A DNA stretch of 64,000 bases from an uncultured Candidatus Saccharimonas sp. (GCA_943353165.1 CALRAM010000001.1:109803-173802); one strand, 5' to 3'; shown: positions 1,382-33,415, numbered from the stretch's first letter. Program-made: numbers and translations. The notes: a model not told the origin generated them from the letters alone.

Positions 1382-1711
1382 CTATTTATTTTTGAGTGCT
1401 TTTTTTTGGAGTCGTTTTTGGGCTGCAATGCGCACCAGAATATTGAGGCTGGCAGCAATAATACCAACGCCTATCAGCACATAAAATATCGTAAATAGCT
1501 TGGTGCCTGGTGTGGTGGGGTGAATATCGCCGTAACCCACGGTGGTAATAGTGATCACCGAAAAATAAACCGCGTCTATCCAGCTCAAGTGCAGGAACCT
1601 ATGATAAAAGACCGATCCAGTAGCAATCACAGATAAGGCTGTTAGCACCACCCACTTGAAGTGTAGGGCTGTATCAACTGCTTCAGAGGTAGTTTGTTTA
1701 GACATATTCAA
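1382..1711 (-). CDS. minimal two-TM potassium channel (pore-only, KcsA/Kcv-like)
   Basis: 109 aa: TM1, pore helix, canonical selectivity filter TTVGYGD, TM2, basic tail. Confidence 0.85.
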   Translation of the reverse strand: MNMSKQTTSEAVDTALHFKWVVLTALSVIATGSVFYHRFLHLSWIDAVYFSVITITTVGYGDIHPTTPGTKLFTIFYVLIGVGIIAASLNILVRIAAQKRLQKKALKNK

Positions 1712-1771: not shown

Positions 1772-2554
1772 ATGATGAAACCAAAAACAGATCAAGGCAA
1801 AAAACTACAGCGATTCAATTTTATTATGGGCTCTGTGCATCTAGTGCAAGCATCAGCCATGCTGATAATTTTAAATTACGCCTTAAAGCTACCTATTATT
1901 ACTAGATTTTTTGATATAGATCCCAATGGAGAATATGCTGTGGTAACCGAAACGCTAGTTAGGGTACCAATAGCCATTGTTGGCCCACTATTTTTGCTGG
2001 TGGCAGCGTTTTTTCACTTTTTTGTTGCTTCGCCATTGTACGTTCGACGCTACGAGGCAAATATAAAAAATGGTATCAATCCAATGCGCTGGCTAGAGTA
2101 CTCCATTAGTTCGTCGCTGATGATTACAGCGCTACTGATGATGGGTGGACTAATCGAGCTGCCAAGCGTAGTTTTTGTTTTTACTCTGAATTTTTTGATG
2201 AATATCTGGGGCTTAGAGATGGAGCGCTACAATCAGCTAACCAATAAAACATCTTGGTTTCCATTCAATATCGGCATTATCGCCGGCATAGTACCCTGGA
2301 TAATCGGAGGTATTTACTTTTGGGCCAGTACCAACAACATTGCCGATTCTATACCATGGTACGCCCAGCTAGGTTTTGTGGTAACATTTTTGCTATTTAA
2401 TACCTTTGCTATCAATATGTGGCTGCAGTACAAACAGATTGGCAAATGGAAAAACTACGTCTATGGCGAGCGAACCTACATTTGGTTGAGCCTTATCGCC
2501 AAATCGTTACTAGCCTGGATAATAGTTCTAGGCACCCTGAGCGCTACCAACTAG
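1772..2554 (+). CDS. heliorhodopsin (7-TM retinal protein, inverted topology family)
   Basis: 260 aa. It follows heliorhodopsin 48C12 blocks as I recall them: LQRFNFIMGSVHLVQ, RWLEYSISSSLMI (counterion-position Glu109, nt 2096-2098), IAGIVPWI, GERTYIWLSLIAKSLLAW (Schiff-base-position Lys244, nt 2501-2503). Confidence 0.85.
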   Translation: MMKPKTDQGKKLQRFNFIMGSVHLVQASAMLIILNYALKLPIITRFFDIDPNGEYAVVTETLVRVPIAIVGPLFLLVAAFFHFFVASPLYVRRYEANIKNGINPMRWLEYSISSSLMITALLMMGGLIELPSVVFVFTLNFLMNIWGLEMERYNQLTNKTSWFPFNIGIIAGIVPWIIGGIYFWASTNNIADSIPWYAQLGFVVTFLLFNTFAINMWLQYKQIGKWKNYVYGERTYIWLSLIAKSLLAWIIVLGTLSATN

Positions 2555-2632: not shown

Positions 2633-2980
2633 ATGAGCGAACTCGAAAAGATGCAAAAGCGAGTAATCGATTTCCGCGACGCACGCGATTGGAAACAATT
2701 TCATAACCCAAAAGATATGGCTATTTCGTTAAATCTTGAAGCATCTGAATTGCTTGAGCACTTTCAATGGAAAGACAGTGAGGAAATAAGTGATTACATC
2801 AAAAAAAACAAGTCATCAATAGCAGACGAGCTTGCCGATGTTATGTACTGGGTACTACTGATGGCCAATGATATAGATGTGGATATTACTGAAAGCTTTG
2901 AAAAAAAGATGAAACACAATGAAGGTAAATATTCGATTGAAAAAGCCAAGGGTAACCATAAGAAATATACTGAGCTATAG
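2633..2980 (+). CDS. mazG: MazG-type all-alpha nucleoside triphosphate pyrophosphohydrolase
   Basis: 115 aa. Motifs: RDWKQFHNPKDMAISLNLEASELLEHFQW and ELADVMYWVLLMAN, a typical small MazG/YpjD signature. Confidence 0.75.
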   Translation: MSELEKMQKRVIDFRDARDWKQFHNPKDMAISLNLEASELLEHFQWKDSEEISDYIKKNKSSIADELADVMYWVLLMANDIDVDITESFEKKMKHNEGKYSIEKAKGNHKKYTEL

Positions 2981-2983
2981 CGC

Positions 2984-5023
2984 ATGGCGCAAATAATAAC
3001 ATTTGATTTCAGCCCAATAGGTTTTGACGAGGTGCGTGATTATCATTACGGCCGTGACTGGCCTGTTGTCTATATACTTGAGTCAAATAACGAAGCATAC
3101 GTCGGTGAAACCACGAATTTTTATAACCGAAGCAGGCAGCACTATGAAAATCCCGACAGAAAGAGGTTAAAAAATGCTCATATTATTACAGATGAAACAT
3201 ATAACAAGTCTGCCGCTTTAGATATAGAATCATTTCTTATAACACATCTTGCCGCTGAGGGTACTTTTTTATTGCAAAATAGAAATGACGGTATACGTGA
3301 TCACAACTACTATCAAAGGGATGAGTACCAGGCAAAATGTGAAGTTATCTGGAAAGAACTGATTGAGAAAAAACTTGTTCAAAAAGAAGTTTATGAGATA
3401 GAAAATAGTGACCTATTCAAATACTCACCATATAAGTCATTGACTGAAGAACAACACGATTTTGTTAAGCAGTTGGTTGAAGATATTGAAAAGGATAATG
3501 CCAAAACGTATGTAGTAGAAGGTGCACCAGGCACCGGGAAAACAATCCTCGCCACATATCTTGTGAAGTATTTGAAAGATAGACGAAGCACAAAACATTT
3601 AAAGATTGCGCTTGTGGCGCCAATGTCGAGCTTGCGCGGGACAATACAGCAGGTTTTCCGTGCAACAGCCGGCCTTAAAGCAAATATGGTGATTGGACCT
3701 AGCGGGGTAGCAAAAGAGGCATACGATCTTGTAATTGTTGATGAGGCGCACAGACTTAAAAAGAGAAGAAACCTCGGCGCTGGATTTGGAGCATTTGATA
3801 ATGTTAATAAAAAACTTGGGCTTTCAAAAGAATCCACTCAACTTGACTGGATTCTTGGGAGTTCAAAGCGTCAGGTCTTGTTTTATGATCAAGGACAGAG
3901 TGTTTTGCCCTCAGACATTCATGACATAGATTTACGTAGCAAGGGTGCGCAATTTTATACGCTCACAAAACAGATGCGCATACAGGCTGGTGAAGAATAT
4001 GTTCTACTAGTCGAAGCTATACTTAATCAAAGGGAAATTATTAGCACAAAACTAAATAATTATGAATTTCAAATATTTGATGATGTCGCAGAAATGCACC
4101 ACGCGATCAGGCTTAGAGATAAAGAGCACGGACTCTCTCGCCTTGTTGCAGGTTTTGCATGGCCATGGTTTACTAATCCAGCAAGTCCTGGCCCAAAACA
4201 AGATTATGATATTGAGATCAATGGTTATAAATTAAGGTGGAATAATAAAACAAAGGACTGGGTGAACTCAACTGGTGCTATTAATGAAGTGGGGTGTATT
4301 CATACAGTACAGGGCTATGGAATGAACTATGTGGGTGTGATTATAGGCCCCGAGCTTTATTATGATGAGAAAAATAAACGAATAACGGTAGATAGAAGTA
4401 AATACTGTGATCGCAATGGGCATGCTGGTGTTACGGACCCTGATGAGCTAGAGCGGTATATTAAGAATATATACAGAACATTGCTTACTCGTGGTATAAA
4501 AGGTACCTATGTATATATTGTTGATGAAAATCTCAGGAATTATTTTAAGATGCTGTTAAACCAAGAAACTGCTCAAGAGCCGCTGGCTGAAGTATTTTAT
4601 AGTGAAAATAAAGTATTGGACTTCCTTAAAATGAAAATGGTCGGAATACCTTTGGTTGGTTCTGCCCCTTGTGGCAACCCAATGCTCGGGGAAGAGAATA
4701 TTGAAGAATATATTGAAGTCGAAAAAAGCAAAATTAGACCCGGCTACAATTACTTCATACTACGTGCGATTGGTGACTCGATGAACCTTGCCGGAATAAA
4801 TGATGGCGATTTAGTACTCTGTCGTCAGCAATTAAAGGCCGACACTGGTGACAGGGTGGTTGCACTCTTAGGTGACAATGTGACAATAAAAGTATATGGG
4901 CCTCGTAAAGACGGCGTGCGATTTCTTTTGCCGAACAGCTCGAATAGTGAGCATGCCCCTATAGCCCCCAGTGAAGGCGATAGTGTACAGGGCATTGTGC
5001 AAGAAGTTTTAACTGCAGATTAA
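2984..5023 (+). CDS. three-domain protein: N-terminal GIY-YIG-like (COG3410 type), DUF2075/Schlafen-like P-loop helicase-type ATPase, C-terminal LexA/UmuD-type S24 self-cleaving peptidase domain
   Basis: 679 aa. PVVYILESNNEAYVGETTNFYNRSRQHY (GIY-YIG-like); Walker A GAPGTGKT; Walker B LVIVDEAHRL. The C-terminus aligns by eye to LexA: IPLVGSAPCG (Cys563-Gly564, nt 4670-4675, UmuD-like cleavage pair), GDSM (Ser599, nt 4778-4780), VTIKV (Lys636, nt 4889-4891). It starts 4 nt after the mazG stop. Confidence 0.8.
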   Translation: MAQIITFDFSPIGFDEVRDYHYGRDWPVVYILESNNEAYVGETTNFYNRSRQHYENPDRKRLKNAHIITDETYNKSAALDIESFLITHLAAEGTFLLQNRNDGIRDHNYYQRDEYQAKCEVIWKELIEKKLVQKEVYEIENSDLFKYSPYKSLTEEQHDFVKQLVEDIEKDNAKTYVVEGAPGTGKTILATYLVKYLKDRRSTKHLKIALVAPMSSLRGTIQQVFRATAGLKANMVIGPSGVAKEAYDLVIVDEAHRLKKRRNLGAGFGAFDNVNKKLGLSKESTQLDWILGSSKRQVLFYDQGQSVLPSDIHDIDLRSKGAQFYTLTKQMRIQAGEEYVLLVEAILNQREIISTKLNNYEFQIFDDVAEMHHAIRLRDKEHGLSRLVAGFAWPWFTNPASPGPKQDYDIEINGYKLRWNNKTKDWVNSTGAINEVGCIHTVQGYGMNYVGVIIGPELYYDEKNKRITVDRSKYCDRNGHAGVTDPDELERYIKNIYRTLLTRGIKGTYVYIVDENLRNYFKMLLNQETAQEPLAEVFYSENKVLDFLKMKMVGIPLVGSAPCGNPMLGEENIEEYIEVEKSKIRPGYNYFILRAIGDSMNLAGINDGDLVLCRQQLKADTGDRVVALLGDNVTIKVYGPRKDGVRFLLPNSSNSEHAPIAPSEGDSVQGIVQEVLTAD

Positions 5024-5056
5024 CGTTATGGCTGCCCCAAAACCCCATAATCATCT

Positions 5057-5090
5057 CCCTACTATAACTGCCGCCCGCCGCGTGGTAAGA
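5057..5090 (+). promoter_or_regulatory. copy 1 of the repeated motif CCCTACTATAACTGCCGCCCGCCGCGTGG..., with a degenerate -10 (TGGTAAGAC) and no downstream + strand gene
   Basis: Near-identical over about 28 nt to the copies at 5745, 6909 and 7913. Confidence 0.4.
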
Positions 5091-5146
5091 CCGGCCCAAC
5101 AGCTTGACATCGACTCGCCCCAAGTTCAGCACTAGATAAGATACTG

Positions 5147-5680
5147 CTACTTTTGTGAAGTGTAAAAAATGCGAGTCTTGTTGGTAAGCAATTCATAATC
5201 CTCGTCGCTGTATGCGCAAATAATTATTTCGCTAATTGGGGCGACTGACTCTTGCTGGTAGCTGTGTATGGCCTCATGTGCTAGATCGATAGCTTCTTCT
5301 TTTGGATAGCCATAAACGCCAGCTGAAATTAGTGGGAAAGCAATGGAGCTTGAGCCACTTTGCTCGGCTAGCCACAAGGACTGTAAGTAGGCGCTCTTTA
5401 GCAGCTCTGAGGTGTTGCGACTGTTATCATAAATTGGCCCTACCGCGTGCACAACATATTTAGCAGGCAAATTGAATCCAGGAGTAATTACTGCCTCGCC
5501 AGTCTCGCAAATACCAATGGTGGTGCAGGCCTCGGCCATTTCGTGCCACCCAGCAGCATCAAAAATAGCCCCGCATACACCAGAGCCACCTAAAAGTTGA
5601 GTGTTTGCAGCATTAACAATACAATCAACCTCCAGCTTTGTTATATCGCCTCGGTGTACTTTGATTTTATTTTTTTGCAT
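5147..5680 (-). CDS. macrodomain protein (ADP-ribose binding / O-acetyl-ADP-ribose deacetylase, YmdB-like)
   Basis: Motifs: GDITKLEVDCIVNAANTQLLGGSGVCGAIFDAAG and IAFPLISAGVYGYP. The ORF extends to 5725, but the Met at 5680 (MQKNKIKVHRGDIT) fits the family N-terminus. Confidence 0.85.
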   Translation of the reverse strand: MQKNKIKVHRGDITKLEVDCIVNAANTQLLGGSGVCGAIFDAAGWHEMAEACTTIGICETGEAVITPGFNLPAKYVVHAVGPIYDNSRNTSELLKSAYLQSLWLAEQSGSSSIAFPLISAGVYGYPKEEAIDLAHEAIHSYQQESVAPISEIIICAYSDEDYELLTNKTRIFYTSQK

Positions 5681-5744
5681 AGCATTATTATAGTCTATAT
5701 TCCTGCTGCAAATAACCCCAAACACTAAACCCCAAAATTCACAA

Positions 5745-5787: not shown

Positions 5788-6903
5788 ATGGCTAAACCCA
5801 ATAACCTAATTTCTAATTTGCTAGCTAACGTGATCGGTTTTGCTAAAAAAAATACGCTTATTAGCACCGGCATGGCAGTTGTGGCGCTGGCCGTGATTTC
5901 TGGCGTGGCTTTTGGAGCGTTTAGTAGCTCTAGTCCAACCATTGCGCCCACACCGGCTCCTACCACCACGCCGCCTAGCCAGACAAAGCCAGACACCACC
6001 GAGCCTACTGCCACGCCAGCTACTGACCCTGTGGTGACCTATGTACGCAAAAAAACTACCACTCCAACACCCGCACCAACTCCAACACCCGCACCAACTC
6101 CGACCCCCACGCCCACTCCAGTAGAATCTCCACAAATAGTTTTATCGGACAGGACAGTTTCGGCTAGTACGGCTGGACTTACTCAAATAGACCTTACCGC
6201 TATCTACGATTCAGGCTATGGTGGCACGTCGCCGATACCAGGAGTTTTGGATGACAGTTTCGTACCTATGCCCTTGAATGGTAACGACTTCTACTTTTTT
6301 GGTACTAACCACGGGCTAGCCAATACTATATTTTGGAATTCAAATAATGCACTAACCTTCGGCGCAGTATTTAATTCATCAATAGTGAGCATAAACCACG
6401 ACACAGGCCCAGCTATACTGATTGGTAATTATGACAGACTGTTATCGGATATTTATTATTCAAATACAGTAACCTCAGACAGCAAATACAAAATCTATAG
6501 GATGATCGTTAAGTTTGCCGACTATTATACAGATACAACTAACCTAGATGCTGGAATCTACCAAATTAGATTAGTCAAAGAAAATGCGGGAGCAAAGAGG
6601 CAGTGGGTTGAGGTTTCGATTATATCAAGCCCGCCAAGCCCCGGCTACTCAAATAACCCTGCGGTTAGCTACCCGTCTGGCGTAAACGGCTTGGGTCAAC
6701 CACAGGATTCAAATGGTCTGGCAATCGACCCTACCAAGGACTCTCCCTATAACATTACTAGCGGAACGGCTTCATCTTTCATTAATCCACCAGGTTCGCT
6801 CTATTCGACTGCTAGTCCTGCGGTCGGGACAAGCCTTTTGCTGCAAAGTGATGAGCTCGGCAATACCTGGACCTTTACCGAACACGCCTATCTAAATATT
6901 TAG
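5788..6903 (+). CDS. membrane-anchored surface protein with a Pro/Thr-rich linker
   Basis: 371 aa: N-terminal TM segment, PTPAPTPTPAPTPTPTPTP linker (nt about 6057-6120), then a Ser/Asn/Tyr-rich extracytoplasmic domain. Confidence 0.6.
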   Translation: MAKPNNLISNLLANVIGFAKKNTLISTGMAVVALAVISGVAFGAFSSSSPTIAPTPAPTTTPPSQTKPDTTEPTATPATDPVVTYVRKKTTTPTPAPTPTPAPTPTPTPTPVESPQIVLSDRTVSASTAGLTQIDLTAIYDSGYGGTSPIPGVLDDSFVPMPLNGNDFYFFGTNHGLANTIFWNSNNALTFGAVFNSSIVSINHDTGPAILIGNYDRLLSDIYYSNTVTSDSKYKIYRMIVKFADYYTDTTNLDAGIYQIRLVKENAGAKRQWVEVSIISSPPSPGYSNNPAVSYPSGVNGLGQPQDSNGLAIDPTKDSPYNITSGTASSFINPPGSLYSTASPAVGTSLLLQSDELGNTWTFTEHAYLNI

Positions 6904-6972: not shown

Positions 6973-7854
6973 ATGCCTAGATACAACATGAATGATCAAG
7001 AATATGCCGAGTATACAAAATTGTCTAAAGAGCATCAGCAAAAGTTTTGGAAAATATTGAGCTCTCGGCGGAACGTTTTAACGTGGACGGCATACTATAC
7101 GTCGTTAATTTTAGTACTTGTAGGAATAGGGTTCTTGCCTCCAAAACTGAGAGATAGCAATTGGACAGGATTAATATTTACGGTAGCAATGGTAACACCA
7201 GCCTTGTATTTTTGTTACTTTTTGATTTTCTTTGTTAAAACAAGCAACAAACCACTTCAAAAAATATTGACTGCAAAGAATGAGCGCATTGCTGCAGCGA
7301 AAATTGCAAGTACAACGCGTATTGCTACAGCGAAAATTGCAAAAACAGAACAGACTGCTGCGATTCATAAGTCATATAACCAAGATGAAGAAAACGTAAC
7401 GAGGGGATTACTGTTTGCAGCGTGCGCAATCCCGATAGCTATGATTGTATATTTATTTCTTTATTATTTTGGATTCTTTGCATCTCTTTCCTCATGGCTA
7501 TTTGGGTACCTAGTCGTACAATTTTATACTGCTGGTGCTAGAGCAGAGGCAGTCAAAGGATTTCGTAGATTGATAGTGTTGGTCGTTGTGGGTGTGGTAC
7601 TTTTCATCCAGGCTGGAATTGCCATGGATGTATTAAGATATTATGCTGCAAACCAGGAATTAATGATAAGCCAAGGGTATGATAGATTTTGGACTGTGAT
7701 TAGTGTCCTAACGAATCCAAAAGTGTATTACATAGACAATCTGCAGAACATATTGATAACAATAGGTTTTGCAACACTTGGGCTGTACTCTCAAATCAAG
7801 AGCCTACACAAAAACCGAAAAAGCATACTAGCTACCACCAAGAAAAAAGCATAA
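6973..7854 (+). CDS. polytopic membrane protein, unknown function
   Basis: 293 aa with several hydrophobic spans. It has an in-frame 33-nt tandem duplication (7288-7309 / 7321-7342; IAAAKIASTTR / IATAKIAKTEQ). Confidence 0.55.
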   Translation: MPRYNMNDQEYAEYTKLSKEHQQKFWKILSSRRNVLTWTAYYTSLILVLVGIGFLPPKLRDSNWTGLIFTVAMVTPALYFCYFLIFFVKTSNKPLQKILTAKNERIAAAKIASTTRIATAKIAKTEQTAAIHKSYNQDEENVTRGLLFAACAIPIAMIVYLFLYYFGFFASLSSWLFGYLVVQFYTAGARAEAVKGFRRLIVLVVVGVVLFIQAGIAMDVLRYYAANQELMISQGYDRFWTVISVLTNPKVYYIDNLQNILITIGFATLGLYSQIKSLHKNRKSILATTKKKA

Positions 7855-7912
7855 TAACCGGCGTGAGTCGTTAATAGGAATTGACTATTAACTCCCTAAA
7901 AATCTAAACAAG

Positions 7913-7948
7913 CCCTACTATAACTGCCGCCCGCCGCATGGTATGATT
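7913..7948 (+). promoter_or_regulatory. copy 4 of the repeated motif, with extended -10 TGgTATGAT; an AGGAG RBS precedes the ATG at 7978
   Basis: CCCTACTATAACTGCCGCCCGCCGCATGGTATGATT. Confidence 0.55.
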
Positions 7949-7977
7949 AAGCATAATAATAAAGGAGAAATTGTACG

Positions 7978-9144
7978 ATGGATCATCAAGATCAAAATTC
8001 AGATTCTACACCTGTACCTGCTGTTCCTTCTACTCCATTACCATCAAATCCTCCTGTTGCAACTGCAATTACATCACAAGTTTTAGCAGCACAGCCTGAC
8101 CAACCCCAGAAGCACATAATGCAGAGATACAATAGACTTGGCCTAGGTATATACTTGGCCTTTGTCATACTAATATTACTAAATTTATTCTTTTTTGGCG
8201 GCAACATAGTAGGAGTACTTATTGTTAGTAACATATTTTTCTTCGCAGTACCTGTATTGTTTTTTATAAATATATTTATTATAGGTTACTTGAATGCATT
8301 TTCAACGAAAACAATCGTAACTCGCGTTAAAGATGGCTTACCAGGCAGCACTGCAGCGCCAAGTAATGTTGCTAGCCCCAGCATTGTTAGCCGTATTACT
8401 AAGATCGAAATAGTGCTGGCTTATGTTGTATTAATTTTCGCATCACTTTCGATACTAACTCTGATACAACGACTTTTTTATAGGGTAACCTTTGCATTTG
8501 AGCCACTTTTTGGTGTCAGCCCAGTGCTCACGCGACAAGTAAGGTCAGTTGCTGAATTAATTCTAGGGGTGGTAGCTATATCGGCATTGACGTTATTATT
8601 TGCACGGTTAGGTCGAAGGTATGCCCTAAAAAGCTCAAATCAAACTACTAAACGCAAAAGCATTGGAATTAAAGCCATCATAGGCATACTAATAATCTAC
8701 ATTGTTTTACTTGCTGTATCACTAATTATTAATTTTGCTGAATCGAACAAGGAAGGGCAGTCATCAGACGCTTCATTAACTTTTTGTGAACGTTTTTTTG
8801 GGATTAATATTGCAACTGCCGAAAGTCAGATTGGTGAATTGTCAGCTAATTGGGTGATTGGTGAGACTAATACAAAAAAAGTCTGGAATACGCACGTAAA
8901 AGAGGTCCAAGCACTAATAGATGCAGCTCCTGCGGAACTTCGTGATAATTCTGCTGCATATCTTAGAATGGTCAAGGCACAAGCCGAGTTAAGAACTAAA
9001 TACGGCTATATTGACACTAGTGAGTACCCAGCTGGAGTATACGATAAGTTCGAAATTGACCACGATCAAGATTCTCAACAATCTGGAAAATTCTATGACG
9101 GTGTCGTAAAATACTGTGATAAAGACCCATCGTCAGATTATTGA
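7978..9144 (+). CDS. polytopic membrane protein with a Pro-rich N-terminus and a soluble C-terminal domain
   Basis: 388 aa with multiple TM spans. No recognisable catalytic motif. Confidence 0.55.
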   Translation: MDHQDQNSDSTPVPAVPSTPLPSNPPVATAITSQVLAAQPDQPQKHIMQRYNRLGLGIYLAFVILILLNLFFFGGNIVGVLIVSNIFFFAVPVLFFINIFIIGYLNAFSTKTIVTRVKDGLPGSTAAPSNVASPSIVSRITKIEIVLAYVVLIFASLSILTLIQRLFYRVTFAFEPLFGVSPVLTRQVRSVAELILGVVAISALTLLFARLGRRYALKSSNQTTKRKSIGIKAIIGILIIYIVLLAVSLIINFAESNKEGQSSDASLTFCERFFGINIATAESQIGELSANWVIGETNTKKVWNTHVKEVQALIDAAPAELRDNSAAYLRMVKAQAELRTKYGYIDTSEYPAGVYDKFEIDHDQDSQQSGKFYDGVVKYCDKDPSSDY

Positions 9145-9642: not shown

Positions 9643-10509
9643 ATGAGCATAAAAACACGCAAAATTTTACCCGTCATTGGCCTCGCACTTTTTGCATTGG
9701 TATTTTTGCTACGCCCGGGCATTGCATCGGCTCACCAACCTCGCATCGTGGAAGATCGCCTAACGGTAGTAACGGAGCCGGAGATCTCGAAAGCCTACTA
9801 CGCCAAGCTCGAAGGGGTGCCAGATATTTATACTATTAGCTCTAGCCAAGACTTTGACCTTTATGTTGGTATTTTGGTTCCGGATATTGCAGGCCAAAAG
9901 AAAGATATAACTGTAATAGTATTAAAAGACGGCAACCAAATCGCCGTTCTAGATGGCATTTCGTTTGCATGGACACAGTTCTATGAGCCATTTGGTGCCG
10001 ACAAGTACTGGAAGGGAGGCGAGTACAGTGCAGCTGCCGGGCCAGGCAAATATGAGGTCCGCGTATCCAGCACCAATAACGACAGTAAATACGCACTTGC
10101 TATAGGAGAGACAGAAAAGTTTGGCCTAAGCGATAGTCTGAGTACGACCACATTAATACCGCAGATCAAAAAAGATTTCTTTAACAAGTCTCCAGCTGGA
10201 TTCGTATTTTCGTCATTGGGGCTAGGGCTAATCGCAGTTATGTACATACTTGCGTTTATTTTTGGATTTGCCTACCATGCATTACTAAAAAAGTTTGCCA
10301 AGGGCACTACTCGTGGAGCCGTCAGAAATATCGGCACCCCCGACCGCTTGCTGCGTGTAGCTATCGGCGTGGGGCTGCTACTTTGGGCAATTACAACCTC
10401 CTGGAGCCCATTTCTACTCTTCTTCTCTGGCTTTGCATTTTTTGAAGCCATATTTAGCTGGTGTGGATTTTATGCCGCTCTAGGCAAAAAAACCTGCCCT
10501 ACACAGTAG
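9643..10509 (+). CDS. secreted/membrane protein with a C-terminal DUF2892 (YgaP-like) two-TM module
   Basis: 288 aa. Signal peptide ending ASAHQ; C-terminus RLLRVAIGVGLLLWAI...FEAIFSWCGFYAALGKKTCP is typical of DUF2892. Confidence 0.5.
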   Translation: MSIKTRKILPVIGLALFALVFLLRPGIASAHQPRIVEDRLTVVTEPEISKAYYAKLEGVPDIYTISSSQDFDLYVGILVPDIAGQKKDITVIVLKDGNQIAVLDGISFAWTQFYEPFGADKYWKGGEYSAAAGPGKYEVRVSSTNNDSKYALAIGETEKFGLSDSLSTTTLIPQIKKDFFNKSPAGFVFSSLGLGLIAVMYILAFIFGFAYHALLKKFAKGTTRGAVRNIGTPDRLLRVAIGVGLLLWAITTSWSPFLLFFSGFAFFEAIFSWCGFYAALGKKTCPTQ

Positions 10510-10788
10510 TTGAGCGTATATGTAACCGCAACAATGCGGCGATAGCTGTTAAGATATAAAACAATCGTAAGTATCGGAAATTAACAAGGACTGTCCACAC
10601 AAAGCAAGAAAAATGTTACTAAAGCCTAGGCACCTCAGCTCAGATTATTAACTCTGGTTTTTTGAAAGCTCAGTTATTCGTAGGGGTAAATAGTAGGGTC
10701 TATCTTGCGTATGCGATTTTAGATAGCTATTTTAGAGATGTCTTCCTAATACTAACGCTAATTATATTAGATAGTTCAAGTTGTCCTT

Positions 10789-31986: not shown

Positions 31987-33415
31987 TACTTTAACTAGAA
32001 AAATAGAAATTTTTAAAACTATAAACCCCAAAAAAGTTAGTTTGTACTCTTGTGGTCCAACTGTGTACGACTACTACCATATTGGTAATCTACGAAATGC
32101 TGTATTTAACGACACCCTACGGCGTACCTTGGAACTTAACAACTTCAAAGTTAGCCAGATTATGAATATAACAGATGTAGGCCACTTAGCAGCAGATAAC
32201 GACGAAGGTGAAGACAAGCTAGAAAAAGGAGCTTTTAGGGAAGGCAAAACTGTCGAAGAAGTAGCAAAACATTACACTCTAAGCTTCAAAAATGACATGC
32301 TAAGCATGAACATATTACCCCCAAATGCCTATCATAGTCCTACCTATAACGACAATTACGCCCGAGCAACGGAATTTATAGATCAACAGATAGAAATGGT
32401 AAAGATACTGATAGACAAAGGTTATGCCTATATAACTCATCAAGCAATTTATTTTGATGTATTAAAATTACCAAGCTACGGAGAGTTAACTGGTCAAAAT
32501 CTTAAAGACAAAGAAAATGGAGCCAGAAAAGAAGTTATTACAGATAAATCCAAAAAGCATCCTTATGATTTTGCATTATGGTTTTTTGCGGTAGATAGAT
32601 TCCAGAAACATTCAATGATATGGAAAAGTCCCTGGGGAGTTGGTTTTCCAGGTTGGCACTTGGAATGTTCGGCAATCATACACACACTACTAGGTGACCC
32701 CATAGACATTCATACCGGTGGAGTTGACCACATTGGCACTCATCACCCTAACGAAATGGCCCAAACGCAAGCAGCCTTCGGACACAAACTGGCAAATTAT
32801 TGGATACACAATGAATTCATACTTGTAGATGGATTGAAAATGGCCAAATCAAAGCAAAATAGCTATACGCTGAAAGATTTGGCCGTAAAAGGATACGACG
32901 CTTTAGAGTACAGAATGATGGTATTGCAGGCCCATTATAGAAAAGAGCTCAACTTTTCATGGGAAGGCCTAGAAGCCGCTAGAAACAGACTAAACAAAAT
33001 TAAATCTATCGCTGTAATGCGTTTTCAACCATCAGCTTTTAATGATTCGGGCGTTTCTGCCAAATCATTAATGGAATGCTTGGAAAATATGCAATTGTCT
33101 TTATCTAACGATTTAAATACACCCACAGCTCTATCCCAACTCAGTGAAATAGTTAACAGCATAGAGTCTTTGGGATTGGCCTCTGGAACAAAAGTTCAAT
33201 ACATAAAGTTTCTAGAAAAATTAGACTCAATGTTGGGCCTAGCTTTACTAGAAACAAAAGATTTGGACAATACACTACAAGCTATACTGAAAAGCCGAAC
33301 AAATGCCAGACAAAACAAGCTATGGAATGTTTCTGACGAATTAAGGATAGAGCTACATTCTCATGGTATTTCAATTAGAGACACAGACCAGGGTCAAATT
33401 TGGTTTAGAATTTAA
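31973..33415 (+). CDS. cysS: cysteine--tRNA ligase
   Basis: LYSCGPTVYDYYHIGNLR (HIGH), KMAKSKQN (KMSKS), GWHLECSA zinc site. Confidence 0.9.
   Translation: MKLYNTLTRKIEIFKTINPKKVSLYSCGPTVYDYYHIGNLRNAVFNDTLRRTLELNNFKVSQIMNITDVGHLAADNDEGEDKLEKGAFREGKTVEEVAKHYTLSFKNDMLSMNILPPNAYHSPTYNDNYARATEFIDQQIEMVKILIDKGYAYITHQAIYFDVLKLPSYGELTGQNLKDKENGARKEVITDKSKKHPYDFALWFFAVDRFQKHSMIWKSPWGVGFPGWHLECSAIIHTLLGDPIDIHTGGVDHIGTHHPNEMAQTQAAFGHKLANYWIHNEFILVDGLKMAKSKQNSYTLKDLAVKGYDALEYRMMVLQAHYRKELNFSWEGLEAARNRLNKIKSIAVMRFQPSAFNDSGVSAKSLMECLENMQLSLSNDLNTPTALSQLSEIVNSIESLGLASGTKVQYIKFLEKLDSMLGLALLETKDLDNTLQAILKSRTNARQNKLWNVSDELRIELHSHGISIRDTDQGQIWFRI

Follow-up and report, generated by a model that had tools for sequence, protein, structure and literature searches.

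We analyzed a 64,000-nucleotide (nt) stretch of DNA (the window) from an uncultured Candidatus Saccharimonas sp. (GCA_943353165.1 CALRAM010000001.1:109803-173802), in which a small gene for a MazG-like pyrophosphohydrolase is followed by a gene for a 679-amino-acid (aa) protein that joins a GIY-YIG nuclease domain, a DUF2075 helicase core and a LexA/UmuD-type S24 domain. The three open reading frames (ORFs) that an initial annotation of this DNA had placed here, these two and a macrodomain gene converging on them, are all present at the coordinates it gave, and its three-domain reading of the fusion protein (GIY-YIG, DUF2075 ATPase and S24) is confirmed by Pfam. The TAG stop of the MazG gene ends at 2980 and the ATG of the fusion gene lies at 2984, leaving a gap of 3 nt. 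Exactly the same fusion protein occurs in public assemblies labeled "Patescibacteria group bacterium." The features of the locus are as follows.

2633-2980, plus strand: gene 1 of the operon, a MazG-like, DCTPP1-type all-alpha nucleoside triphosphate (NTP) pyrophosphohydrolase (115 aa, PF12643)
2735-2758, plus strand: MazG metal-binding motif LEASELLE (E36, E39, E42), at least 95% conserved in 22 partner MazG proteins
2825-2839, plus strand: second MazG metal-binding motif DELAD (E66, D69), at least 95% conserved in the same 22 proteins
2984-5023, plus strand: gene for the fusion of GIY-YIG nuclease, superfamily 1B (SF1B) helicase and S24 domain (679 aa)
3059-3286, plus strand: GIY-YIG nuclease domain, about aa 26-101 (Y30, Y39, G41, R49, H53, E82, N99), from Pfam
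3503-4525, plus strand: DUF2075/Schlafen group-3 type SF1B helicase core, aa 174-514, from PF09848 and Foldseek
3521-3544, plus strand: Walker A motif GAPGTGKT (K186), from conservation in homologs
3731-3754, plus strand: Walker B/DEAH box VIVDEAHR (D253, E254, H256, R257), from conservation
4568-4633, plus strand: flexible linker between helicase and S24 domain, aa 529-550, with an AlphaFold2 predicted local distance difference test (pLDDT) score below 50 and variable in alignments
4640-5020, plus strand: LexA/UmuD-type Peptidase_S24 autoproteolytic domain, aa 553-679, from PF00717, TIGR00498, PDB and Foldseek
4670-4675, plus strand: predicted scissile bond Cys563-Gly564, aligned to LexA Ala84-Gly85
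4778-4780, plus strand: predicted catalytic Ser599 (GDSM), aligned to LexA Ser119
4889-4891, plus strand: predicted general base Lys636 (VTIKV), aligned to LexA Lys156
5147-5725, minus strand: gene for a Macro protein (192 aa)

The S24 domain, the enzymatic modules and the MazG partner

The C-terminal tail of the fusion protein is matched by Peptidase_S24 at aa 556 to 667 (Pfam, E = 2.5e-20) and by the NCBIfam LexA model TIGR00498 at aa 550 to 675 (E = 1.7e-21); the score of the latter, 76.8 bits against an equivalog cutoff of 110.95, is below cutoff as expected, because the C-terminal domain alone is covered. In a phmmer search against PDB, Escherichia coli LexA aligns with aa 531 to 661 (E = 2.5e-13), which places IPLVGSAPC563-G564 over LexA LPLVGRVAA84-G85, GDS599M over GMS119M, and VTIK636V over VTVK156R. 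The S24 tail of an AlphaFold2 model superposes on LexA C-terminal domains in Foldseek with target-normalized TM scores of 0.74 to 0.75, a root mean square deviation of about 3 Å and 32 to 34% identity. An S24 fold for aa 553 to 679, as first proposed, is therefore borne out by Pfam, the LexA model, the PDB alignment and Foldseek on the AlphaFold2 model, and the residue numbers assigned to C563, G564, S599 and K636 were exact.

The predicted cleavage site is conserved far beyond the window. In a 130-sequence homolog alignment, from which all residue counts given here are taken, C563 is found in 128 sequences and G564 in 127, while S599 and K636 are each found in 129. A divergent branch of proteins of 730 to 776 aa (Flavobacteriaceae type, ~39% identical) has Ala-Gly or Cys-Gly at the cleavage position, read for two Flavobacteriaceae proteins from a local C-terminal alignment, and keeps G-x-S-M as well as T-x-K with the conserved Lys; its S24 domain is complete, with an insertion in the barrel. 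Retention of the scissile Cys-Gly pair and the Ser/Lys dyad in homologs, on which the initial annotation depended, thus holds both in the alignment and in this branch. The catalytic residues suggest that the S24 autoprotease is intact and conserved, and self-cleavage is predicted.

Judged by its sequence, the fusion protein is neither LexA nor UmuD. Pfam finds no LexA_DNA_bind domain (the N-terminal winged helix of LexA) in the 679-aa protein, and the UmuD model NF007621 reaches 49.9 bits against a cutoff of 110, the domain here being attached to more than 550 aa of other protein and not a stand-alone protein of ~139 aa. No UmuC was identified among the annotated or scanned neighbors in the examined loci, where no search specific for UmuC was run.

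The helicase core is matched by SLFN-g3_helicase/DUF2075 (PF09848) at aa 174 to 514 (E = 6e-71), and this match, together with Walker A and DExH motifs that are both intact, places it among the DUF2075/Schlafen group-3 SF1B helicases. Walker A K186 is present in all 130 homologs, and D253, E254, H256 and R257 of the DEAH box are present in 129; the structural neighbors of the core in Foldseek are RecD2, SLFN11, Dna2, Upf1 and Pif1. The GIY-YIG domain (PF01541, aa 28 to 90, E = 1.2e-7, 32.4 bits versus a curated cutoff of 22.6) is modeled with beta-beta-alpha-beta-alpha topology and has the tyrosines and the catalytic Arg, Glu and Asn residues of GIY-YIG nucleases, residues that are kept in 122 to 126 of the 130 homologs, that is, in essentially all GIY-YIG-type members. 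Since the catalytic residues are conserved, all enzymatic modules look active. The AlphaFold2 model, built from 60 homologs, has a pLDDT of 79.8 and a predicted TM score (pTM) of 0.60; residues 529 to 550 are disordered in it, S24 being joined to the nuclease-helicase by a flexible linker of ~25 residues, and the cleavage loop at residues 561 to 564 is modeled at low confidence, which would fit a mobile cleavage-site region.

The product of the upstream gene belongs to the MazG/DCTPP1-like pyrophosphohydrolases by family profile (Pfam MazG-like, PF12643, E = 1.3e-19) and by its EExxE...ExxD motifs, and it carries an RDWxQFH motif. Among solved structures, its best matches are 4qgp (1.3e-19) and mouse/human DCTPP1, also called RS21-C6 (3.5e-16). 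It shares both motifs and a C-terminal KY-x-x-L tail with DCTPP1/RS21-C6; unlike them, it is a bacterial protein of 115 aa that appears translationally coupled to a nuclease-helicase.

The pairing of the two genes is highly persistent. A scan of one genome per GTDB species yielded 26 loci with a full or partial homolog of the fusion protein, 24 in Patescibacteria and 2 in Flavobacteriaceae (related loci are given here by L numbers). Upstream DNA is included for 24 of these loci, and in 23 of them tblastn places a MazG-like gene directly before the helicase gene; the sole exception, L016, has a frameshifted helicase gene. Junctions between the two genes in related loci are overlaps of 1 to 4 nt or gaps of a few nt, suggesting that the MazG and fusion genes are translationally coupled. 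At least 20 plasmid records of the Bacillus cereus group have the MazG gene directly upstream of S24-less GIY-YIG-DUF2075 relatives (coordinate cross-match); these relatives are 32 to 34% identical to the window protein over aa 27 to 525, and the plasmid "nucleotide pyrophosphohydrolase" is 50 to 58% identical to the window MazG. The pair is also present in all five IMG/VR loci examined and on an unverified fecal "phage" contig. Conservation of the MazG neighbor, claimed from the start, is accordingly seen in the 23 of 24 genome loci, on the Bacillus plasmids and in the IMG/VR loci. In two S24-less IMG/VR loci the order is inverted, helicase first and then MazG, with the genes still contiguous (L092 3457-5366 and L093 3125-5031). 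Persistence of the linkage through inverted gene order argues for functional coupling and for MazG as a real functional partner of the nuclease-helicase. The initial annotation had named three outcomes that would count against it, namely no S24 fold, no conservation of the Ser and Lys residues, and no conservation of the fusion with its MazG neighbor; none of them was encountered.

tblastn detects the macrodomain gene, which had been put forward as part of the module, in none of the 26 related genome loci, and it was not seen in L081 to L085 either, so that it is a chance neighbor and the unit is a two-gene operon, not one of three genes. Upstream of the operon, a perfect TATAAT stands at 2583-2588, 45 nt before the MazG start, with which a consensus scan pairs no -35 element; several related loci have promoter-like TTGTAA...(G/C)AAAAT elements upstream instead.

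The family and its genomic neighborhoods

A search of 5.8 billion proteins gave at least 120 full-length or nearly full-length homologs among the matches listed, 56 to 95% identical to the window protein and all with PF09848 and PF00717, far more proteins of the same architecture than expected by chance. Those with a named source come from Patescibacteria (Paceibacteria, Kaiserbacteria, Nomurabacteria and others). A HMMER scan, exhaustive over 1.84 billion cluster representatives, returned 458 clusters at E <= 1e-30, and most of the top 150 are GIY-YIG-DUF2075 proteins of 520 to 600 aa that end where the helicase of the window protein ends. The S24 domain is carried by 20 of the 138 closest full-length (>=500 aa) sequences examined, ~1 in 8, in a set that includes the window protein and three added locus proteins. 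In a nearest-neighbor table of helicase-core similarity, S24-bearing and S24-less clusters are mutually nearest. This intermixing indicates that S24 is an optional C-terminal module, gained or lost repeatedly, and since S24-less members exist among the S24-bearing ones, the core enzyme evidently functions without it; the sequences thus cast S24 as an optional regulatory add-on.

The nuclease can be exchanged as well. In two pairs of Patescibacteria loci (L020/L021 and L023/L025), MazG, helicase and S24 are kept and GIY-YIG is replaced by a domain of ~260 aa, of which the two versions are homologous to each other. The replacement domain has no sequence match in Pfam or PDB in the L020 and L023 variants. 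It contains RIDFII...VIIELKQW (domain at L020 1828-2610 and L023 5416-6200), read by eye as PD-(D/E)xK-like. Optional S24, a swappable nuclease, the DCTPP1-like nature of MazG, and occurrence on mobile elements in Bacteroidota and Bacillota were all missing from the initial annotation.

Decayed copies also occur: the gene at L016 6001-7984 is frameshifted, and a split gene (MCX6805130.1/MCX6805132.1) occurs in a metagenome-assembled genome, with at least 90% identity to the window protein. Such copies suggest either dispensability or assembly errors.

The flanks of the pair differ in most related loci, and several kinds of neighbor recur. A Fic/Doc-family (RhuM-Fic) gene lies directly upstream of MazG in L003 (4432-5421), L010, L020, L081 to L084 (8408-9601 in L081) and L085 (9055-9555); the L003 protein matches the PADLOC candidate PDC-S23 (E = 1.7e-112), and the Fic/RhuM gene may be a third linked gene in some lineages. 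HNH endonuclease genes adjoin the pair in the Patescibacteria loci L020 (4122-4817), L023 (7737-8438) and L013 (2745-3452) and on both Bacillus plasmids (L086 2993-3916; L087 3399-4349 and 7055-7912). The N-terminal domains of these HNH proteins have no Pfam match and by eye look like putative modified-base-reading domains (SRA/PUA-like), a reading that would fit a DCTPP1-like partner. An NYN protein is also among the neighbors of the pair, and a zeta toxin is found in one Bacillus plasmid locus and a ResIII/SNF2 helicase in the other. Directly downstream of the helicase-S24 gene in L021, a gene at 7585-8592 encodes a Schlafen AlbA_2 protein (E = 1.7e-9), so that by domain content the two halves of eukaryotic Schlafens appear there as neighboring genes. 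One S24-bearing copy of 747 aa in Bacteroidota lies in an integrative-element-like region (L089 1-13178) with a tyrosine integrase, two calcineurin-like phosphoesterases, a DJ-1/PfpI protein and a VapE/BT4734-type primase.

Around the operon in the window itself, a heliorhodopsin gene (1772-2554, plus strand; Pfam E = 7e-81) lies immediately upstream, and beside it is a gene for a two-transmembrane K+-channel-like protein (1382-1711, minus strand; Ion_trans_2, E = 1e-21); neither is conserved with the pair. The macrodomain, heliorhodopsin and K-channel genes were considered as members of the module and set aside, as they have no tblastn matches and no shared clusters in related loci. The downstream ORFs of the window have no counterpart in any related locus. 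One of them (5788-6903, plus strand) encodes a 371-aa protein without a Pfam match, in which a long low-complexity stretch is rich in Pro and Thr (TPTPAPTPTP...); it is probably a secreted or surface protein. The accessory block between two tRNA genes in which the operon had been placed did not hold up as a tRNA-flanked island: its G+C fraction of ~0.38 to 0.46 is like that of the adjoining sequence, and no integrase or other mobility gene was seen among the window ORFs.

Possible roles of a putatively self-cleaving nuclease-helicase

Self-cleaving S24 domains are established switches of repressors (LexA and cI) and of UmuD. As a tentative but possible reading, the one that we prefer, the fusion protein would be an accessory defense-type nuclease-helicase that is licensed by self-cleavage stimulated by RecA filaments and works with a pyrophosphatase that sanitizes deoxynucleoside triphosphates (dNTPs). 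In the unstressed cell the full-length protein would be inactive or restrained, most simply through S24-mediated dimerization or occlusion. Abundant filaments of RecA on single-stranded DNA (ssDNA) would form on the intermediates of phage replication or recombination or as a result of DNA damage, the S24 domain would dock in the filament groove as LexA does, and Ser599 and Lys636 would cut Cys563-Gly564. The released nuclease-helicase of 563 residues, matching the natural S24-less members, would then unwind and cut the offending DNA, and the MazG partner would hydrolyze non-canonical or modified dNTPs and keep them out of (phage) DNA synthesis. Because the product 1-563 equals a natural S24-less enzyme, the uncleaved S24 domain must either restrain the enzyme or hold a latent signal for destruction or monomerization. 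We infer the RecA dependence of cleavage by analogy, and likewise infer the direction of the switch and the role in defense. A defense-type role is suggested by the plasmid and integrative-element contexts and by the HNH, Fic, NYN and Schlafen-AlbA_2 neighbors, and from DCTPP1 homology and the recurrent HNH neighbors the role of MazG would be to remove modified or non-canonical dNTPs.

Several points weigh against this proposal. Cleavage inactivates LexA and phage cI; for the activation assumed here, UmuD and not LexA is the model. S24 is not docked confidently on the helicase in the AlphaFold2 prediction (pTM 0.60, disordered linker), where no structural basis for autoinhibition was seen. The substrate of MazG is a guess from DCTPP1 homology. 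The PADLOC check foreseen in the initial annotation gave no named defense system, only partial helicase or GIY-YIG matches (Nhi, AbiO, PDC-S41 and PDC-S14). Patescibacteria copies often sit among housekeeping genes (RF-1, FtsEX, CTP synthase and BipA), and the 55 to 60% identity of the pair across many lineages would fit a conserved repair function as well. A broader proposition, that of a widespread immune nuclease-helicase of Nhi/Schlafen type with a grafted LexA/UmuD domain, we regard as somewhat unlikely. In it, RecA-ssDNA filaments, as a general signal of replicating phage or genotoxic stress, would switch the effector on or off by direct proteolysis with no transcriptional step, and a DCTPP1-like partner would destroy modified dNTPs.

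The same cleavage might instead switch the enzyme off, in a manner resembling restriction alleviation: the S24-dimerized full-length protein would be active, and RecA-stimulated cleavage would remove the nuclease-helicase through dimer loss or a degron, so that ssDNA gaps and repair intermediates of the host would be spared during DNA damage. Such an arrangement would follow LexA and cI, in which cleavage parts a functional domain from a dimerizing C-terminal domain, and it would suit a nuclease with one GIY-YIG site, which cuts one strand and would need dimerization for double-strand cuts; the flexible linker and the lack of S24 docking are compatible with a pure tether. After cleavage, the 730- to 776-aa branch proteins would end in -AAA, -VAA or -AAC. 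Such ends resemble that of the N-terminal LexA fragment, -VAA, which ClpXP reportedly recognizes, in work by Neher et al. in 2003, and the ClpXP-dependent destruction of HsdR after DNA damage, said to have been described by Makovets et al. in 1999, would be a precedent. However, the window-type product would end in ...SAPC, with no obvious degron, and the S24-less relatives intermixed with the S24-bearing ones indicate that core activity is independent of S24. On balance we find an off-switch unlikely.

Ranking next after it, and unlikely too, is a housekeeping SOS-type repair module of small-genome bacteria, in which MazG would sanitize damaged dNTPs and the nuclease-helicase, once activated by RecA, would act on stalled forks, flaps or ends much as Dna2 or RecD2 do, or would strip RecA filaments. 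The helicase core does resemble RecD2 and Dna2, GIY-YIG is the nuclease fold of UvrC, and DCTPP1-type enzymes are house-cleaning enzymes; moreover, the fusion protein is highly conserved across Patescibacteria, often among housekeeping genes with partial TspO-Fic-MazG-helicase synteny, and would be wired directly to the RecA signal. Yet the module occurs patchily and, in Bacillota and Bacteroidota, in association with mobile elements; its nuclease domain is exchanged in some members and S24 is optional, some copies are decayed, the flanks vary in most loci, and the neighbors are typical of defense islands.

Searches for SOS wiring bear on the repair module as well: no LexA-box-like palindrome was seen upstream, which counts against it, but the test was weak. 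By eye, no shared palindrome was seen in 19 upstream regions. GAAC-N4-GTTC has no match near the operon, its sole match in the window, at 33186, being no more than chance. No LexA or RecA gene was found in the 64-kb window. In L025, a canonical LexA gene (LexA_DNA_bind plus S24; 9902-10570) lies 2.3 kb downstream of the module, indicating that the fusion supplements LexA and does not replace it and that such genomes have a RecA/LexA system at their disposal. A direct repeat, TGTGTAT-TA-TGTGTAT, at L025 9820-9850 upstream of that LexA gene is a possible operator.

Finally, a non-cleaving S24 domain that serves only for dimerization or as a handle recruiting the helicase to RecA filaments is very improbable: LexA C-terminal domains do dimerize and bind the RecA filament groove, and PDB 8trg is among the structural matches, but the Ala/Cys-Gly bond and both catalytic residues hardly vary even between deeply diverged members, which would be unexpected if catalysis were dispensable.

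Known relatives and wider meaning

The nearest described defense protein is Nhi of Staphylococcus epidermidis (SERP2475), an anti-phage PD-(D/E)xK nuclease joined to a DUF2075 helicase, both activities of which are needed for immunity (10.1101/776245); "Nhi-like" anti-phage proteins have also been described (10.1101/2022.05.11.491447). The window protein shares with Nhi an N-terminal nuclease and a DUF2075 SF1B helicase in a single polypeptide, and in the L020 and L023 variants the N-terminal domain has a PD-(D/E)xK-like motif, so that these variants would have the Nhi architecture. Unlike Nhi, the window protein has a GIY-YIG nuclease, an added C-terminal S24 domain and a conserved MazG partner gene; MazG is unmentioned in the Nhi preprint (10.1101/776245), and sequence similarity is limited to the helicase core. 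The PADLOC Nhi model matches aa 142 to 379, corresponding to model positions 173 to 374 of 470 (E = 4e-13) and short of full-length Nhi, and the Nhi and AbiO models both match aa ~142 to 380, the N-terminal part of the ATPase domain (~1e-13). By sequence, the relation to Nhi is one of organization, not of orthology.

Other relatives share other parts. With LexA, UmuD and phage cI, the window protein shares the fold, the Ser-Lys dyad and the position of the Ala/Cys-Gly bond (Cys-Gly as in UmuD), whereas its cargo is a nuclease-helicase and not a DNA-binding domain or a 24-residue tail; it has no helix-turn-helix, it scores below the LexA and UmuD equivalog cutoffs, and a separate LexA is present in at least one carrier genome. 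COG3410-type GIY-YIG and DUF2075 proteins such as those of B. cereus-group megaplasmids have the nuclease, the helicase and the adjoining MazG-like gene but lack S24, and they are annotated only as 'DUF2075 domain-containing protein'. Human SLFN11 has a homologous helicase domain (the window protein matches Pfam SLFN-g3_helicase at E = 6e-71 and 7zel in Foldseek) and a nuclease coupled to an ssDNA or replication-stress signal (PMC13056530, PMC6765204), a coupling that in the window protein is predicted; it differs in its AlbA_2-type tRNase, in sensing ssDNA directly via the helicase domain, and in having neither S24 nor a MazG partner.

In our literature search, neither the S24 fusion nor the MazG pairing was described in any paper that we found: DUF2075 and S24 co-occurred only incidentally, DUF2075 and MazG not at all, and a 2026 paper on bacterial Schlafens (RNase domain) makes no mention of LexA, S24, MazG or GIY-YIG. 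What appears to be new, judging from domain content, is the S24 switch on an Nhi-type nuclease-helicase, the parts themselves being of known kinds.

Public records label the two genes only as "DUF2075 domain-containing protein" or "nucleotide pyrophosphohydrolase," and yet they form a conserved two-gene module across several phyla, a DCTPP1-like pyrophosphatase with a nuclease-DUF2075 helicase. Should the switch operate as the residues suggest, it would link the RecA damage signal to a DNA-degrading motor post-translationally and independently of transcription. On the broader immune reading given above, the domain would be the first S24 known to control an enzyme and not a DNA-binding or polymerase-accessory function, and the protein would be a prokaryotic functional counterpart of SLFN11 in sensing replication stress. 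Culturable carriers, with the module on B. cereus-group plasmids and in Flavobacteriaceae, make it directly testable, and, if true, such a switch would represent a new input logic for bacterial defense or genome-guarding enzymes.

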